In this document: one piece after another, positions 24,181 to 52,662 of the stretch | Position numbering within the stretch: position 1 is the stretch's first letter | How the letters are laid out: each line of letters starts with the position of its first letter | Assembly: GCA_001820685.1 (NCBI GenBank) | Contig: MHQP01000033.1 | Span: 42 to 64,041 of the forward strand | Length of the DNA: 64,000 nt | Source: Candidatus Sungbacteria bacterium RIFCSPLOWO2_01_FULL_47_32 | GTDB lineage: Bacteria > Patescibacteriota > Minisyncoccia > Sungbacterales > GWA2-42-14 | Direction of reading: 5' to 3' | Notes under the pieces: model-generated | Told to the model about the DNA's origin: nothing | The model's database searches: none | The model's input: the letters and a program-made list of their open reading frames with translations, nothing else | Program-made: the position numbers and the translations under genes

Positions 24181-24290
24181 CCCCGTTAGAAACTCGCTTC
24201 AAAAACTTGCCAGAGAGCGCCGAGCTATATATCAGCTTCGCAAACCTATGTTCGTTTTAGAGAACTTCGCCGGTAAGCTCCTAACGGGGA
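24181..24290. repeat. Palindromic intergenic element: CCCCGTTAG...(~90 nt)...CTAACGGGG, a member of the dispersed CCCNTTAGAAG box family
   Basis: Perfect 9-bp inverted arms at 24181-24189 and 24281-24289 in the 132-bp gap between two same-strand glycosylation genes. The CCCCGTTAGAA core is the same as the elements at 42.5, 47.2 and 49.6 kb. Confidence 0.5.
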
Positions 24291-47571: not shown

Positions 47572-48444
47572 TTAGTGCAAATTATAAAGATGCTCCCGCA
47601 ACCCCTTCCCAACATCGGGATGCCGCAGACCAAAATCAACAACCGCTTTCAGAAGTCCGAGTTTGTCTCCGCAGTCATAGCGCGTTCCCTCAAATTCATA
47701 GCCGTATATCTTTTTGCCGTGTTTGAGCATTTTTTTAAACGCTTCAGTAAGTTCAAGTTCTTTTCCCGATTTATATTCCAGTCGCGATAATTCATAAAAG
47801 ACATCCGGAGTTAATATGTATTTGCCCACAATAGAAAGATCCGATGGCGCATCTTTCACGGCAGGTTTTTCAACGACGGCGTTTATGCGATATGTCCTGG
47901 TAGCAACTTTTTTTGCGTTGACAATCCCATATTTATAAACTTGTTCCATGGGAACCCTTTCAAGAGCAAATATGGGTGCCTTATATTTTTTAAAAGCGAC
48001 AATAAGCTGTTTAAGACACGGTGTCTTTGAATAAACGACGTCGTCTCCAAAAAGCACAGCGACAGGTTCATCTTTTATGAGATGAAATGCCTGAAGAAGA
48101 GCATCGCCGTTCCCGCGCGGTTCTTTTTGCCGCACGAACGCAAAATTCGCGAGAGAAGAAATTTTCCGTATCTCACGCGCAAGTTCATGCTTGCCTCGTT
48201 TCTCGAGAAAGTATTCGAGTTCAGCGGCGTTATCAAAATGGTCCTCAATAGCACGCTTGCCCCTTCCCGTTACAAAAATAATCTCATTTATTCCCGAAGC
48301 AACCGCTTCTTCAACGAGATATTGAATAACCGGCTTATCAACAATCGGAAGCATCTCCTTTGGCTGTGCTTTTGTCGCAGGAAGAAAGCGGGTTCCAAAA
48401 CCCGCAACCGGAATTATAACCTTTTTTATGTTGAGATTAGCCAA
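47572..48444 (-). CDS. galU: UTP--glucose-1-phosphate uridylyltransferase
   Basis: KVIIPVAGFGTRFLPATKAQPKEMLPIVDKPVIQYLVEEA is the canonical GalU N-terminus. The length (290 aa) is typical. Confidence 0.9.
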   Translation of the reverse strand: MANLNIKKVIIPVAGFGTRFLPATKAQPKEMLPIVDKPVIQYLVEEAVASGINEIIFVTGRGKRAIEDHFDNAAELEYFLEKRGKHELAREIRKISSLANFAFVRQKEPRGNGDALLQAFHLIKDEPVAVLFGDDVVYSKTPCLKQLIVAFKKYKAPIFALERVPMEQVYKYGIVNAKKVATRTYRINAVVEKPAVKDAPSDLSIVGKYILTPDVFYELSRLEYKSGKELELTEAFKKMLKHGKKIYGYEFEGTRYDCGDKLGLLKAVVDFGLRHPDVGKGLREHLYNLH

Positions 48445-48550: not shown

Positions 48551-48595
48551 TGTCGCTTTGTCGTTTATAAGATGTCGTTTAATGGCTGTCGCTTA
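48551..48595. repeat. Four direct repeats TGTCG(C/T)TT(T/A), the last three phased at 14 bp, upstream of galU
   Basis: Repeats at 48551, 48559, 48573 and 48587. Confidence 0.3.
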
Positions 48596-48686
48596 TCCTA
48601 TTAGATGCTTAAAACAGAGTAATTTATAGCGCAATGTCTTTTGAACGATACCAACCTAACTCCAGATAAAATCATCAGAAGAAATG

Positions 48687-49541
48687 CCTCTAATGGGGTT
48701 TATATCTTTATCCTGTAAACAGCCCATCTTTTGTCACCCTCCTTTTCAATGGCATTTTGGCTAATAAGAGAGGCCAAATCCCGCTGGAGAGTCTTAATGC
48801 TGAATCTATTGGCAAATATACCGGTAAGGTCAGTAGACCGAACCTGTTGATTTGAGCGAATATGGTCGAGAATTGTCTTCTGCCGGTCATTAAAAAATTC
48901 GCTTGCTGATATGCGCTTTTCTATTCCATTTCTGTCGCTCTCCTGCATTTCTTCCTCTCTTATTGGTTCATGGCCAATTTCTACAATATTAGTGCTCCTT
49001 TTGGCGTCCTTCTTGATCTGTATAGCACTTTTCCGTTCTGTTCTTACCTGCCTTACAACATGCGGCGTATTAAGTAGCGGCTTTATGGCGATGGGCGCTT
49101 TTTGCTCAATTTTTGCTTCATTTATAAGTCCATTTGCTTCTTCCACGGCATAGTTAAATTCGCGCTCAAAAAAATTAGAAAAAAAACTATATTCCCTATC
49201 AAGAACCATAATATTAACCGGCTTTACCATACTGCTGAAACGAGCGATGCTTAGAAGGGAGCGGACTGCCTGAATTTTTGCGAGAACAGAGGAAATTGCC
49301 TCCGCCTTCTTATAGGCAGTACCGTGTTCCAGAACGGAAGACATTATTTCGTTTGCCTTTTCCCTGACCTGTCGTTTTAAAACCTCACTTTCCGGGAATA
49401 GGTCGGTTACCCTGTAGACGGCGAGGGTAAGTTCGAATATTTTTCGGTTCATTTCACTTGTCATGGTTTTTTGATAGTTAAGAGACAACACACCTCCTGA
49501 GTTTATAAAAATAAGCCAAGACCTGTCAACCCCATTAGAGG
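48687..49541. mobile_element. Cassette bounded by perfect 14-bp inverted repeats (CCTCTAATGGGGTT ... AACCCCATTAGAGG) enclosing the four-helix-bundle/wHTH gene
   Basis: The left arm at 48687-48700 overlaps the gene stop. The right arm at 49528-49541 lies 37 bp upstream of the start. A third arm-like copy CCTCTAGTGGGGT sits at 49745-49757. Confidence 0.35.
48700..49491 (-). CDS. Four-helix-bundle protein (23S-rRNA-IVS-protein family) with C-terminal winged-helix DNA-binding domain
   Basis: N-terminal KIFELTLAVYRVTDLFPESEVLKRQVREKANEIMSSVLEHG ... AISSVLAKIQAVRSLLSIAR resembles the TIGR02436 four-helix-bundle proteins. C-terminal QKTILDHIRSNQQVRSTDLTGIF...SIKTLQRDLASLISQNAIEK is HTH-like. Confidence 0.6.
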   Translation of the reverse strand: MLSLNYQKTMTSEMNRKIFELTLAVYRVTDLFPESEVLKRQVREKANEIMSSVLEHGTAYKKAEAISSVLAKIQAVRSLLSIARFSSMVKPVNIMVLDREYSFFSNFFEREFNYAVEEANGLINEAKIEQKAPIAIKPLLNTPHVVRQVRTERKSAIQIKKDAKRSTNIVEIGHEPIREEEMQESDRNGIEKRISASEFFNDRQKTILDHIRSNQQVRSTDLTGIFANRFSIKTLQRDLASLISQNAIEKEGDKRWAVYRIKI

Positions 49542-49589
49542 TTTAAAATTCTTCATACTTGTTCAAACCATTGTAAGACGAAGGCAGCT

Positions 49590-49706
49590 TCGTCCCGTTA
49601 GAAGTTCAGCCGAGACCGACCTAAAGCAAACATTATAACGCGAAATCGCCTTCGGCTGGAGTTAACACAATCACAGCAAGTCAGTCCATAACTTCTAACG
49701 GGACTT
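49590..49706. repeat. Long palindromic element: GTCCCGTTAGAAGTT (49592-49606) pairs perfectly with AACTTCTAACGGGAC (49690-49704)
   Basis: The 15-bp perfect inverted arms also hold a nested CAGCCGA/TCGGCTG stem and a GCGAAATCGC mini-hairpin that is conserved (GCGAAGTCGC) in the 42.6-kb copy. Confidence 0.5.
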
Positions 49707-49770
49707 CGCCTATTGTTTTCTCTCACAAGAAATGCGTGGGCGACCTCTAGTGGGGTCAACTCTATACCCC

Positions 49771-49807
49771 AAAAACAAACCTCCCTCAGCGTCAAGCGCT
49801 GAGGGAG
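49771..49807 (-). terminator. Rho-independent terminator of clpB
   Basis: On the minus strand an 11-bp perfect stem CTCCCTCAGCG-CTTGA-CGCTGAGGGAG is followed by GTTTGTTTTT. Confidence 0.65.
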
Positions 49808-49824
49808 ATGCCAAAACCAACACG

Positions 49825-52533
49825 TCAAATCCGCGCGAGTTCCTTTTTCTTTCCTTTTCCACCCTCCCCTTTTATGGCTTTTATCTCTGAAGAACTCTTC
49901 AGGAATGCAACTTCCCCGCCCCGAGCATCGCATACCACCTCGTCACCCTCCTTCATACGGCCCGAAACAATTTCTTCGGCAAGGCGGTTTAAGACATACG
50001 TTTGTATCGCGCGCTTTACCGGACGCGCTCCGTAGCGTTCGTCGTATCCCTTTTCCTGAATATACTTTTTAAGGGCATCGCTGAATGAAAGAGCAATGCC
50101 TTTTTCTCCCATGCGTACCCGGACCTTATCCAAGTGCTGTTCAACAATCCTCGCTATGACCTTCGGGTTGAGGCTGTTGAAAATAATAACTTCGTCAAGG
50201 CGGTTCAGAAACTCCGGTCGGAACCTTCTTTCAAGAGATTTTCGTATCTTTTCTTTGAGTTCTTCTTCCTTATTCTCCCGAGACTCTTCTACGCCATCGG
50301 CAAATCCGAGGCGGGCTATCTCCTGCATAAATTCGCTCCCCACATTCGATGTCATGATGATAATTGTATTCTTGAAGTTTACCGTTCTTCCTTTTGCATC
50401 GGTCAGACGCCCGTTATCGAGTATCTGAAGCATGACATTGAATATCTCCGGATGAGCTTTTTCTATCTCATCAAAGAGAATAACGGAATAGGGCCGATGC
50501 TTTATCTTTTCGGTAAGCTGGCCTCCTTCTTCATATCCGACATATCCTGCCGGAGCTCCGATGAATTTCGCAACGGTATGCCGCTCCATATATTCGGACA
50601 TGTCGAAACGGATGAGCGACTTTTCGTCGTTGAACATGAATTCGGCAAGCACTTTTGCAAGCTCGGTTTTTCCAACCCCCGTAGGCCCTAAAAACATGAG
50701 GGACGCAATGGGACGGTCCTCATCCTGAATTCCGGCCCGAGAACGCCGCACCGCGTGCGCTACTTTTGAAATTGCTTCAGCCTGACCGATAACGCGGTTT
50801 GAGAGGACTTCTTCAAGACGCATGAGTTTTTTTGACTCTGCTTCAAGCATTCGCGTTACGGGAATATGCGTCCACCGCGCAACAACCTGCGCAATCTCTT
50901 CCTCCCCAACCTCTTCCCTTAGGAGCTTCCTGCTGGATTGCATTTTCTTCAATTGGTTCTCAAGTTGGATAAGTTTTTTTTCAGAGGTGGGAACAATACC
51001 ATACCGAATCTCCGCAACGCGTTCGAAATTCCCCTCACGTTCCGCCCGTTCGACTTCCTGGGAAAGAATATTCATCTGCTTTTTCATTTCGCCTATCTGA
51101 TTTATAAAATCGCGTTCTTCCTTCCACCTTGAGCTTACTTTATCAAATTTTGCCCTTTCTACGGTTATTTGCTTATCAAGCGTTTTTAAGCGGCTTTTTC
51201 CGTCCTTCTGCGGCTTTTTTGGAGCTGTTTCCTGTTTAAGCGCTTCCCGCTCTATCTCGAGATGTGAAAGATTTTTCTTTACTTCCTCAACCTCTTTCGG
51301 CAAAGAATCCATATCAAGCCTCAAGGAAGACGCGGCCTCGTCAATGAGGTCAACTGCCTTATCGGGCAAAAATCGATCAGTAATATAACGGCTTGAAAGA
51401 TGTGAGGCCGCAATAATTGCCGGATCTGTAATGCGAATGCCGTGGTGAACCTCATATTTATGCTTCAGGCCGCGCAAAATCGCTATTGTATCCTCTACTG
51501 TCGGCTCATCCACATATACCGGCTGAAAGCGCCGAGCGAGGGCAGTATCTCTTTCTATATACTTGTGGTATTCCTTTAGGGTCGTTGCCCCAATAGCGCG
51601 AAGTTCCCCGCGCGCAAGAGCCGGTTTTAGCATATTTGACGCATCAATGGCTCCTTCTGCGGCACCCGCACCAACAATTGTATGCAATTCGTCAATAAAA
51701 ATGATGTATTTGCCATTAGAACGCTCAAGCTCTCTTAAAATTGCTTTCAGGCGGTCTTCAAACTCTCCGCGATACTTTGTTCCGGCAACCAAAGAGCCGA
51801 TATCCAGTGAAATAAGGTCCTTTTCTTTCAACGGTTCGGGAACATTCCCTGAAATAATGCGCTGGGCAAGACCCTCGACAATTGCAGTTTTTCCAACTCC
51901 GGCTTCCCCAATAAGAACGGGGTTGTTCTTTGTTCTCCGCGATAAAACCTGCATAACTCTGCGGATCTCGTCATCCCGCCCGATAACTGGGTCAAGCCTT
52001 TCCTCTCTCGCAAGCTTGGTCAGATTCCTCGCATACTTTTCCAAAACATTGTATTTTGCCTCCGGCTCCGGATCGGTCACCCGCTGAGAACCCCGAAGAG
52101 ACGCAAGCGTTTTCAGGATATTTTCATGCGTAAGGCTCATTTCCACCAACATATCTTTTGTTTTTGTTGGAACTTCCGCAAGCGCCAAAAAAAGATGTTC
52201 TGTTGAAATAAATTCATCTTTGAGCTGTTGGGCTTCTTTATTCGCCTGCTCCATAACTTTCGCAAGGTCTTGAGAAAGATAAAGCGAAATAACCGGAGAA
52301 AGGGCATTTACCCGGGGAAAGTTATCGAGTTTTTGCAAAAGTTTGTCTATAAGAGTTGAAACGTTTACTTCCAGCTTTTCAAGAATTCCCTGGACTGTGC
52401 CCTCCTCCTGCAAAACAAGAGCGGTTACAAGATGAATCGGCTCTATCTGCTGATGAGACCGCTCAATCGCAAGGTCATGCGATTTTTTCAGCGCCTCTTG
52501 AGCTTTAATTGTAAAGTTGTTGAATGGTGTCAT
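49825..52533 (-). CDS. clpB: ATP-dependent chaperone ClpB (two AAA+ modules with middle coiled-coil domain)
   Basis: Clp_N repeats, NBD1 Walker [16 protein letters not shown], a long M-domain coiled coil, NBD2 Walker [16 protein letters not shown], and the sensor-2 region. Confidence 0.92.
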
Positions 52534-52662
52534 GATAGTTTGTCTAATCTTAAATTTTAAATTATGAATGCTCCGCGCACAGAATGTCGTTTATGCCTAA
52601 ACGACAATTTTGCAAATCACAGAGCCTCGTAAATACGAAACTTAATCGAATTATCTATCTTT

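Follow-up and report, generated by a model that had tools for sequence, protein, structure and literature searches.

The Correia elements of Neisseria (CREE/NEMIS), the ERIC/IRU elements of enterobacteria and the RUP elements of pneumococci are about 100-150 bp in length, and the Correia elements duplicate TA. The Rickettsia palindromic elements (RPEs) are likewise about 100-150 bp and can sit in-frame within genes. For MITEs, miniature transposable elements with inverted repeats, the usual picture is that of heterogeneous interiors held between one shared set of terminal repeats. The genomes of Candidate Phyla Radiation (CPR) bacteria are usually regarded as streamlined and poor in mobile DNA. 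Here we analyzed a 64,000-nucleotide (nt) stretch of DNA, hereafter the window, from Candidatus Sungbacteria bacterium RIFCSPLOWO2_01_FULL_47_32 (assembly GCA_001820685.1, contig MHQP01000033.1, positions 42 to 64,041). The window holds a minus-strand open reading frame (ORF), 48700..49491, that codes for a 263-amino-acid protein and is flanked by two 14-bp boxes forming a perfect inverted repeat. An earlier reading made from the letters alone (the sequence-only reading) took this arrangement to be a mobile or intervening sequence (IVS)-like cassette inserted between clpB and galU. Our analysis makes it very likely instead that a MITE family of the cut-and-paste type, with ends of YCCCGTTAGAAG and target-site duplications of the form TNNA, colonized this genome, that two copies of the same sub-lineage flank a resident regulator gene and so create the inverted repeat, and that a third copy is nested within one of them. 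The boxes would then be the ends of two separate MITE copies, and the gene between them a conserved resident regulator rather than cargo.

Repeat copies in the window

The left box, CCTCTAATGGGGTT, lies at 48687-48700 of the plus strand and its exact reverse complement, AACCCCATTAGAGG, at 49528-49541, with 827 nt between them; the sequence-only reading had these coordinates and sequences exactly right. The stop codon of the ORF, TAA, occupies 48702..48700 and shares one base with the left box. A third copy of the box, CCTCTAGTGGGGTC, had also been reported; it is indeed present but starts at 49744 rather than 49745 (49744-49757) and matches at 12 of 14 positions, with two mismatches. An inner palindrome formed by GTCCCGTTAGAAGTT and AACTTCTAACGGGAC (49592-49606 and 49690-49704) pairs over 15 bp with 100% identity. 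A lone perfect 14-bp inverted repeat is by itself not very improbable, the estimate for one within 1 kb being about 0.2 per 64 kb, and the 14-mer with up to three mismatches allowed has six matches in the window versus 4.2 expected. The 11-nt core CCCRTYAGARG occurs six times versus 0.20 expected, always in intergenic positions, and none of 100 shuffles reached six. Thus, the repeat is non-random, since its core is enriched over shuffled sequence.

The window contains seven copies of a repeat element, at 24.2, 42.5, 42.6, 47.2, 48.6, 49.6 and 49.5-49.8 kb, which have in common the terminal inverted repeats YCCCGTTAGAAG and CTTCTAACGGGR. The consensus element is about 95-125 nt long, beginning with T or C followed by CCCGTTAGAAG and finishing with CTTCTAACGGG followed by A or G. 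Apart from one short copy (D), the window copies measure 103-111 nt, or 226 nt for copy G with the copy nested in it, and they contain no conserved ORF. MITEs are shorter than about 500 bp and do not code for proteins of their own. The elements here are likewise short, non-coding and dispersed with common termini, and several are bounded by target-site duplications; sites with and without an insertion are found between related species only.

Three of these copies explain the boxes. Copy G (49530..49755, minus strand) is an outer element whose 226 nt consist of about 110 nt of its own, the nested copy C and the 5-nt duplication made by C. Its 5' terminal inverted repeat (GACCCCACTAGAGG) is the third arm-like copy at 49744..49757, and its 3' terminal inverted repeat (CCTCTAATGGG plus G) makes up the right box at 49528..49541 together with the first TT of a duplicated TTGA. 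This TTGA flanks copy G on both sides (49759..49756 and 49529..49526) and recurs among the duplications of the metagenome copies described below. The closing stem of the 251-nt fold at this site is the pairing of the two ends of copy G. The intrinsic terminator of clpB (49779..49809, minus strand) lies just upstream.

Copy C (49593..49703, minus strand; 111 nt) has the canonical ends TCCCGTTAGAAG...CTTCTAACGGGA, scores 119 bits and folds at -50.2 kcal/mol (z -4.2). It is nested in the central GGCGAAG...CTTCG hairpin of copy G and flanked by the 5-nt repeat CGAAG (49708..49704 and 49592..49588). The palindromic element at 49590-49706, previously called MITE-like, is this copy, so that description was well founded.

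Copy F (48596..48698, minus strand; 103 nt) is a probable, decayed copy with a 5' arm CCCCATTAGAGG and a 3' arm CATCTAATAGG at 48607..48597. Its flanks are TAAA (48702..48699, which includes the stop codon) and TAAG (48595..48592), and the left box at 48687..48700, right after the ORF stop, is the terminal inverted repeat of its 5' end (AACCCCATTAGAGG when read on the minus strand). The sequence CATTTCTTCTGA that follows the left box likewise follows the 5' end of copy G, and both ends of copy F align with the ends of copy G. Copies G and F point the same way and are members of one sub-lineage (arm variant CCCCATTAGAGG), and because of this the 3' end of G is the exact reverse complement of the 5' end of F across the gene. 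The minus-strand order is the G 5' arm, copy C, the G 3' arm, promoter, ORF, the F 5' arm and the F 3' arm. As the ORF lies between two copies of the same orientation, a 3'-type arm is found upstream of it and a 5'-type arm downstream.

The order of events that we propose is that copy G inserted into the TTGA of the -35 box of the gene, with the duplication regenerating TTGACA, that copy C later inserted into copy G, and that copy F inserted at TAAA at the stop codon. Both signals of the gene would be intact after the two insertions because the duplication regenerates the TTGA of the -35 box and the upstream duplicate retains the stop codon. The copies were presumably mobilized in trans by a DDE transposase, and their hairpins may have been reused as RNA stem-loops or terminators.

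The genes of this region are all on the minus strand and include clpB (49825..52533), a galU-like NTP_transferase gene (47572..48444) and a gene for a 1219-amino-acid protein with a PG_binding_1 domain (42788..46447). The remaining copies, also on the minus strand, lie among these genes or further away. Copy A (42592..42700; 116.8 bits) is located between the terminator of the 1219-amino-acid protein gene (42746..42721) and a second terminator (42572..42541), and copy B (47189..47299; 113 bits), which has no recognizable duplication, between galU and the promoter of that gene. The short copy D (approximate limits 42483..42533) runs from CCCCGTTGATAG to GCTCTAACGGGG and folds at -28.2 (z -3.4). 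Copy E (24181..24289; 25.6 bits, E 5e-5) takes up most of the 132 nt that separate an NTP_transferase gene from a GT4 glycosyltransferase gene. When copies A, B and C are aligned along their whole length, the mean column identity is 72%, and a 15-bp closing stem with three compensatory pairs is common to them. A covariance model built from these three copies recovers them by construction at 113-119 bits, and also finds copy E, 24 kb away, and, weakly, copy F. The interiors of G and F have no significant homology to those of the other copies (z about 0-1.5), with the ends alone matching.

Two further features of the window touch this family. At 42440-42750, 3' of the gene for the 1219-amino-acid protein, there are two successive modules. 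Each has a hairpin element, then roughly 30 nt of conserved sequence (GGGGTG(T)GGCnCyAGCCTAGrATyArTAA) and then a hairpin resembling a terminator; hairpins of the latter kind are found at 42746..42721, 42572..42541 and 42456..42439. These modules look like either a local duplication or small independent transcription units. At 62399-62409 an arm-like sequence, CCCATTAGAAC, with one mismatch to the core, is present in the 41-nt spacer between ORFs 61674..62360 and 62402..63346.

Copies in metagenomes, in homologous genes and at start codons

Metagenomes were scanned for the pattern CCCGTTAGAAG-N70-100-CTTCTAACGGG, which was found in at least 120 metagenome stretches and had 0 matches in viral contigs. 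All counts of metagenome copies given here are among the matches listed. These copies are 92-122 nt in length with the 11-nt cores included, their interiors fall into several unrelated subfamilies, and the genes that adjoin them are ordinary housekeeping genes. Across 1.4 Mb of loci the arms almost always occur as convergent pairs spaced about 60-130 nt apart.

With the element ends set one base outside the cores, a flanking direct repeat of 4-5 nt is present in 82 of 117 metagenome copies (70%), versus 9% in a permuted control. The bases at the two ends are T...A in 74 copies and C...G in 36, and the duplications are TGAA/TTCA, TGGA/TCCA, TTGA/TCAA and TAAA/TTTA, that is, TNNA. A search for target-site duplications, which had been proposed previously, is thus positive both in this set and in the window (TTGA for copy G, CGAAG for copy C and TAAA/TAAG for copy F). 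The variable but matched 4-bp duplications would point to cut-and-paste DDE chemistry, and on these grounds hairpin ends of the REP/RAYT or IS200 type were rejected.

Several metagenome copies have unusual arrangements. In L160 (1443-1552) a canonical arm pair encloses a whole tRNA-Val(GAC) gene (ARAGORN 1459-1534) rather than the usual non-coding interior. L172 (3678-3783) has two short copies with one common TTGA (CTTCTAACGGGG-TTGA-CCCCGTTAGAAG), L117 (3134-3366) has two near-identical copies 15 nt apart, and L118 (344-436) has a minimal hairpin, consisting of arms only, that is nested in another copy.

Filled and empty sites are observed among homologues of the regulator gene itself. Specifically, an in-frame copy of 102-105 nt is present in the linker region of the homologues P0005, L003 and P0003, the one in L003 having been found by the covariance model. 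This insert starts with CCCCGTTAGAAGT, ends with ACTTCTAACGGAGTGA and encodes 34-35 residues (PVRS...SNGVN); it is absent from P0002 (254 amino acids) and from the window gene. The linker alignment comprised P0002, P0005, P0003 and L003, the latter over its match region only, and removal of the insert along with one duplication restores the ...IIYSQ... junction. The target-site duplications taken together with these filled and empty sites show that DNA transposition has occurred. Other copies and empty sites, as the sequence-only reading had suggested looking for, therefore do exist, although they are those of the MITE and not of a unit made up of box, ORF and box.

Copies are also found near other homologues of the regulator. 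A 124-nt copy is located 141 nt upstream of the homologue in L069, a 60-nt copy 67 nt upstream in L029 and another copy about 300 nt upstream in L191. In L004 (4703-4939) a larger copy, of roughly 235 nt, is inserted where a distant homologue (35% identity) has its 3' end, and provides the last seven codons and the stop (…TYTLNLVRGQR*). The site of this L004 copy is about the same place as that of copy F in the window, which could reflect either an insertion hotspot or an old retained insertion. The regulator gene is present in only 1 of 120 pattern-selected loci, about the chance rate, and for this reason we claim no functional link between the MITE and the regulator.

A feature of the metagenome set is its relation to start codons. 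When ORFs of at least 60 codons are considered, 68 of the 117 copies (58%; 62 ATG and 6 GTG) end exactly at a start codon (...CGGG|ATGAA), versus 0.9% for random positions; examples among L084-L203 are L088 13728-13845, L090 1034-1152 and L141 4065-4186. Of these 68 copies, 50 have a duplicate of the start codon 6 nt ahead of the element, with ATGRA on the other side of the element, and an extended -10-like box (TGnTAnnAT) is usually located 6-10 nt upstream of the duplicated start. A Shine-Dalgarno sequence is rare upstream of the duplicate (7 of 50, versus a background of 12%), and only 12 of 50 have an upstream ORF whose stop is the TAA of the 3' arm, 4 nt ahead of the ATG. Element lengths are biased toward 1 mod 3 (50 copies, versus 34 and 33 for the other two classes). 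The duplicated start codons, the nearby -10-like boxes and the scarcity of Shine-Dalgarno sequences suggest insertion at the 5' end of leaderless genes, whose expression might then involve re-initiation after a short upstream ORF, removal of the hairpin or initiation bridged by the hairpin. In the window there are parallels in the element located at the -35 box (TTGA|CA) and the one at the stop codon (TAA|A). We tentatively entertain, though on balance doubt, the idea that the family is targeted to gene-boundary signals, or survives only there, with the signals being restored by the terminal base plus the TNNA duplication. If an enzyme such as RNase III were to clip the hairpin out, the transcript would regain a leaderless 5'-AUG and the element would behave as an 'intervening sequence' in mRNA. 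Gating of initiation by the hairpin would instead amount to a new way for transposon and host to accommodate each other in CPR bacteria. The family could serve as a probe for the tolerance of leaderless genes to 5' insertions.

The gene between the boxes and its protein

The protein database contains 54 full-length relatives of the encoded protein, from Ca. Sungbacteria and other Patescibacteria, some of which are named DeoR-family regulators. Relatives were confirmed in at least 140 stretches (one genome per species) from Sungbacteria, Niyogibacteria, Taylorbacteria, Kaiserbacteria and other Parcubacteria. Synteny was counted in the best 80 of the 140 stretches, which represent 79 distinct loci. 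A homologue of the 1219-amino-acid protein follows the gene in 67 of these 79 loci and galU follows in 27, so that the order ORF, galU (where present) and giant peptidoglycan (PG)-binding protein is kept in 67 of the 79. The full order of clpB, ORF, galU and giant protein gene is present in the close relatives L001, L002, L003, L009, L017 and L023. The 14-nt box is missing from the orthologous flanks in the loci of relatives, apart from unrelated matches with two mismatches. A conserved operator or a conserved RNA stem at this locus is rejected because the box is not conserved in orthologous loci.

The gene also has its own promoter. A predicted sigma-70-like promoter at 49500..49529 (minus strand) consists of TTGACA followed by an 18-nt spacer and TAAACT, or by a 16-nt spacer and TATAAA, and is followed by AGGAGG and a GTG start. 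The right box is fused straight to the -35 hexamer (CCTCTAATGGGG-TTGACA), and the TTGA at this position is the downstream duplication of copy G. Note that in L001-L003 a TTGACA -35 sequence and a -10-like hexamer precede the orthologue in the absence of any box or element.

The giant protein is about 1200 amino acids long, with an N-terminal PG_binding_1 domain and a long T/S/A/G-rich region, and galU is also syntenic in Sungbacteria. Ahead of the giant gene lies 1.1 kb of non-coding DNA, in which a promoter-like site (47003..46975) is located some 520 nt from the start. Gene order suggests that the regulator, galU and the giant protein may form a cell-envelope regulon.

In the window and its closest relatives a different motif, TAARCGACA, is found three to four times between the regulator gene and galU, directly 3' of the former. 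The sites are at 48559-48595 in the window, 4809-4831 in L001, 3895-3940 in L002, 4859-4907 in L003, 2720-2781 in L009 and 699-782 in L071. The motif also forms a palindrome, TGTCGTTTA-N4-TAAACGACA, upstream of clpB (window 52585-52606). Exact matches to TAARCGACA number five in the window versus 0.9 expected, and AARCGACA is enriched 0-150 nt 3' of the gene across the 78 of the 79 loci where the gene could be located by tblastn. In relatives that are further removed (L004 and L069) there are GGACA/TGTCC repeats at the same place. These TAARCGACA or xGACA repeats and palindromes are a better candidate operator for the winged-helix protein than is the 14-bp box.

The AlphaFold2 model of the protein has a mean predicted local distance difference test (pLDDT) score of 79, with helices at residues 2-29, 37-56, 62-85 and 91-119 exceeding 90. 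The layout comprises a four-helix bundle (residues 2-119), a disordered linker (about 125-195) and a winged helix (196-261). Foldseek matches the N-terminal domain to 2gsc at a template modeling (TM) score of 0.81-0.84 and a root-mean-square deviation (rmsd) of 1.4-1.6 A, to 2rld, named 'S23 ribosomal protein family', at TM 0.75-0.83, and to Avd (4dwl/8ub7) at TM 0.83-0.86, with the rmsd to 2gsc, 2rld and 4dwl ranging over 1.4-1.9 A. The C-terminal domain matches winged helices of the MarR/ArsR/BlaI type. The best PDB match of the family profile is 2gsc (E 0.03), with the common motif YR.T..FP..E..L..Q.R. Profile, AlphaFold2 and Foldseek evidence thus bear out the resemblance, suggested by the sequence-only reading, of the N-terminal domain to the four-helix bundle of 23S-IVS proteins and the presence of a winged helix.

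The window protein has no Pfam match above noise and only weak NCBIfam matches over residues 16-85, to NF008911 (E 0.013, 16 bits versus a cut-off of 137) and to Avd of diversity-generating retroelements (DGRs; E 0.032). The suggested match to TIGR02436 was not obtained with the window protein at E <= 1, and was obtained at E <= 0.1 with only 4 of 25 members of its family (best 2.8e-4). Among these 25 members, HTH_DeoR is matched by 21, NF008911 by 13 (best 2.4e-6) and PF05635 by 6 (6e-4). By the curated hidden Markov model cut-offs the protein is thus not a member of TIGR02436 or PF05635, and at the level of the modeled fold it is superposable on solved members of 23S_rRNA_IVP. DeoR-family regulators have HTH_DeoR at the N-terminus and a sugar-phosphate sensor domain, DeoRC, at the C-terminus. 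Assignment to that family was rejected; HTH_DeoR is matched by 21 of 25 members but C-terminally, it is not matched at E <= 0.1 by the window protein, and there is no DeoRC domain. Pfam and NCBIfam profile searches also revealed no transposase or nuclease domain. The modeled structure supports the conclusion that the protein is an Avd/23S-IVS-type four-helix bundle joined to a generic winged helix of the DNA-binding type.

Compared with the 23S-IVS proteins (PF05635/TIGR02436) and Avd, the protein has the same N-domain fold and the motif ...YR.T..FP..E...L..Q.R in common. It differs from them in having a C-terminal winged helix fused via a disordered linker and in scoring below the curated cut-offs, and its gene is located in neither an rRNA intervening sequence nor a DGR. 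CtsR has a winged helix-turn-helix followed by a four-helix bundle, and the domain order of the window protein is the reverse of this. Overall, the analysis defines a conserved, lineage-specific regulator with an Avd-like bundle and a winged helix, in synteny with galU and a giant peptidoglycan-binding surface protein and with a candidate operator adjacent to it.

Alternative readings and known systems

Three other readings of the boxes were weighed against that of two flanking MITE copies. That the ORF and its two 14-bp repeats form one mobile cassette, IS (insertion sequence)- or IVS-like, of which the palindrome is a non-autonomous derivative, accounts for the perfect inverted repeat that flanks the ORF, for the fact that the same box ends a true MITE next door, and for an N-terminal domain of a fold family first seen in 23S rRNA intervening sequences. 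Against this, synteny of the gene is kept in 67 of 79 Parcubacteria loci and its clpB-galU position in relatives, the gene has its own promoter and lacks the box in orthologous flanks, and the protein has no transposase or nuclease domain. The polarity of the arms is inside-out relative to that of a MITE, with the 3' type upstream and the 5' type downstream, and both boxes have a partner arm and a duplication of their own, located on the far side from the ORF. A 23S rRNA intervening sequence would lie within a 23S rRNA gene and have a stem that RNase III cuts. A search of the whole window at the Rfam gathering threshold, and of 46.4-49.9 kb by E-value, together with a tRNA/tmRNA scan, gave no meaningful match to rRNA, tRNA, tmRNA or any Rfam family, so the statement that no rRNA is present here was correct, and membership among 23S IVS proteins is not supported by the curated cut-offs. 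We therefore consider a cassette of this kind extremely unlikely, and this disposes of a false lead, as the ORF represents no mobile cassette and no intervening sequence of the rRNA type. An integron attC array was rejected as well. An attC site has R''/R' boxes and a stem that is imperfect and contains extrahelical bases, lacks a target duplication and is found near an integrase; here the likeness of the boxes is only 6 of 7 (TTCTAAC/GTTAGAA versus RYYYAAC...GTTRRRY), the stems are 15-bp and perfect, target duplications are present and the genes between copies are syntenic housekeeping genes.

If the boxes (YCCCGTTAGARG) were instead operators of the encoded winged-helix protein, with autoregulation at the -35 box, more sites near the gene for the giant protein and hairpins as their carriers, this would fit with a box that abuts the -35 of the ORF promoter, with a protein of the DNA-binding type, with a distance of no more than 7 kb from the gene for six of the seven copies in the window, and with the element being inside or within about 300 nt of the homologue in L003, L004, L029, L069 and L191. 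However, at least 120 metagenome stretches have these ends beside unrelated housekeeping genes, with the regulator near only 1 of 120, the box is not conserved at orthologous promoters, and it is TAARCGACA/xGACA that is conserved beside the gene in relatives. Operator function of the boxes is accordingly very improbable. We hold to be very unlikely a reading as conserved cis-acting RNA modules, in which pairing of boxes or hairpins leads to double-stranded RNA that is processed (e.g. by RNase III) or in which the transcript is stabilized or terminated. Its appeal lies in the sense (minus-strand) folds of A, B, C and E, which are 7-17 kcal/mol more stable than the antisense folds, in the fact that every non-Watson-Crick stem pair is a G-U on the transcribed strand, and in the location of copies downstream of genes and beside terminators; the left box and the bases that follow it also form a weak terminator-like hairpin (48695..48673) after the ORF. 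Yet only transcription that runs through the clpB terminator would bring the upstream box into the transcript of the ORF, and long-range pairing of the boxes across the ORF is unlikely to matter because that box lies between the clpB terminator and the ORF promoter. The duplications and the filled and empty sites argue for transposition at the DNA level, no Rfam family matches, and the 68 oriented metagenome copies listed, with orientation set by the abutting gene, exhibit no bias in sense versus antisense stability (31 versus 37, p = 0.88). An ungapped count of stem extension was uninformative owing to bulges.

Several observations also weigh against two flanking MITE copies as the explanation. 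Because the metagenome copies were picked by pattern, their spacing statistics carry a bias. No recurrent transposase was present in the 120 listed loci, where clustering of 454 ORFs gave only housekeeping families and glycosyltransferases. No long-range pair of terminal repeats encloses a gene, except for those of neighboring copies, in pattern searches that could not span 1-2 kb. The population of this organism has no presence/absence polymorphism (five contigs, 99.5-100% identity, no indels), and copies A, B and E have no recognizable duplication. Copy F is degenerate: its 3' arm has three mismatches, its fold does not surpass that of shuffles and its score is 12.8 bits (match over 48589-48704); because of this score and its shuffle-like fold it is a probable rather than a proven copy. 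Finally, the window copies all have one orientation and their stem wobbles are G-U only on the transcribed strand, which hints at some RNA-level constraint beyond that of pure selfish DNA. The polarity of the sense folds may reflect local exaptation or an intrinsic polarity of the subfamily. Secondary exaptation of individual copies, which is compatible with a MITE origin, is possible though not likely.

A MITE origin of the boxes has consequences beyond this locus. It defines, with precise ends and a target duplication, a family that is widespread in CPR/Parcubacteria and of which we found no published description; a full-text literature search for the arm sequence gave only unrelated papers, and nothing relevant was found on MITEs in CPR bacteria. 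The family could serve as a marker for strain typing, and its copies are a source of annotation errors, as they add in-frame peptides and alter gene ends.

With respect to known transposons, ends that start with CC along with 4-5-bp duplications presumably recall DDE transposons of the IS1380/piggyBac type, which we take only as a lead. The piggyBac element has a TTAA duplication and ends of CCCTAGAAAG. The elements described here similarly have ends that begin with CC(C) and finish with (G)GG, with duplications of 4-5 bp, and no transposase gene with these ends was found here. Like RPEs, the family can add coding sequence, as the in-frame copy of 102-105 nt adds 34-35 residues to the disordered linker in P0003, P0005 and L003. 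It differs from RPEs in that the sequences are unrelated, the copies are mostly intergenic or at gene starts, and the target duplications are clear. There is also a likeness to the Neisseria Correia (CREE/NEMIS), enterobacterial ERIC/IRU and pneumococcal RUP elements, with which the family has in common non-coding imperfect palindromes, terminal inverted repeats, short target duplications, many intergenic copies, nested insertions and sites beside promoters and terminators. It is set apart from all of these by its YCCCGTTAGAAG ends, its 4-bp TNNA duplication, its CPR/Parcubacteria host and the location of 58% of the listed metagenome copies at a start codon.

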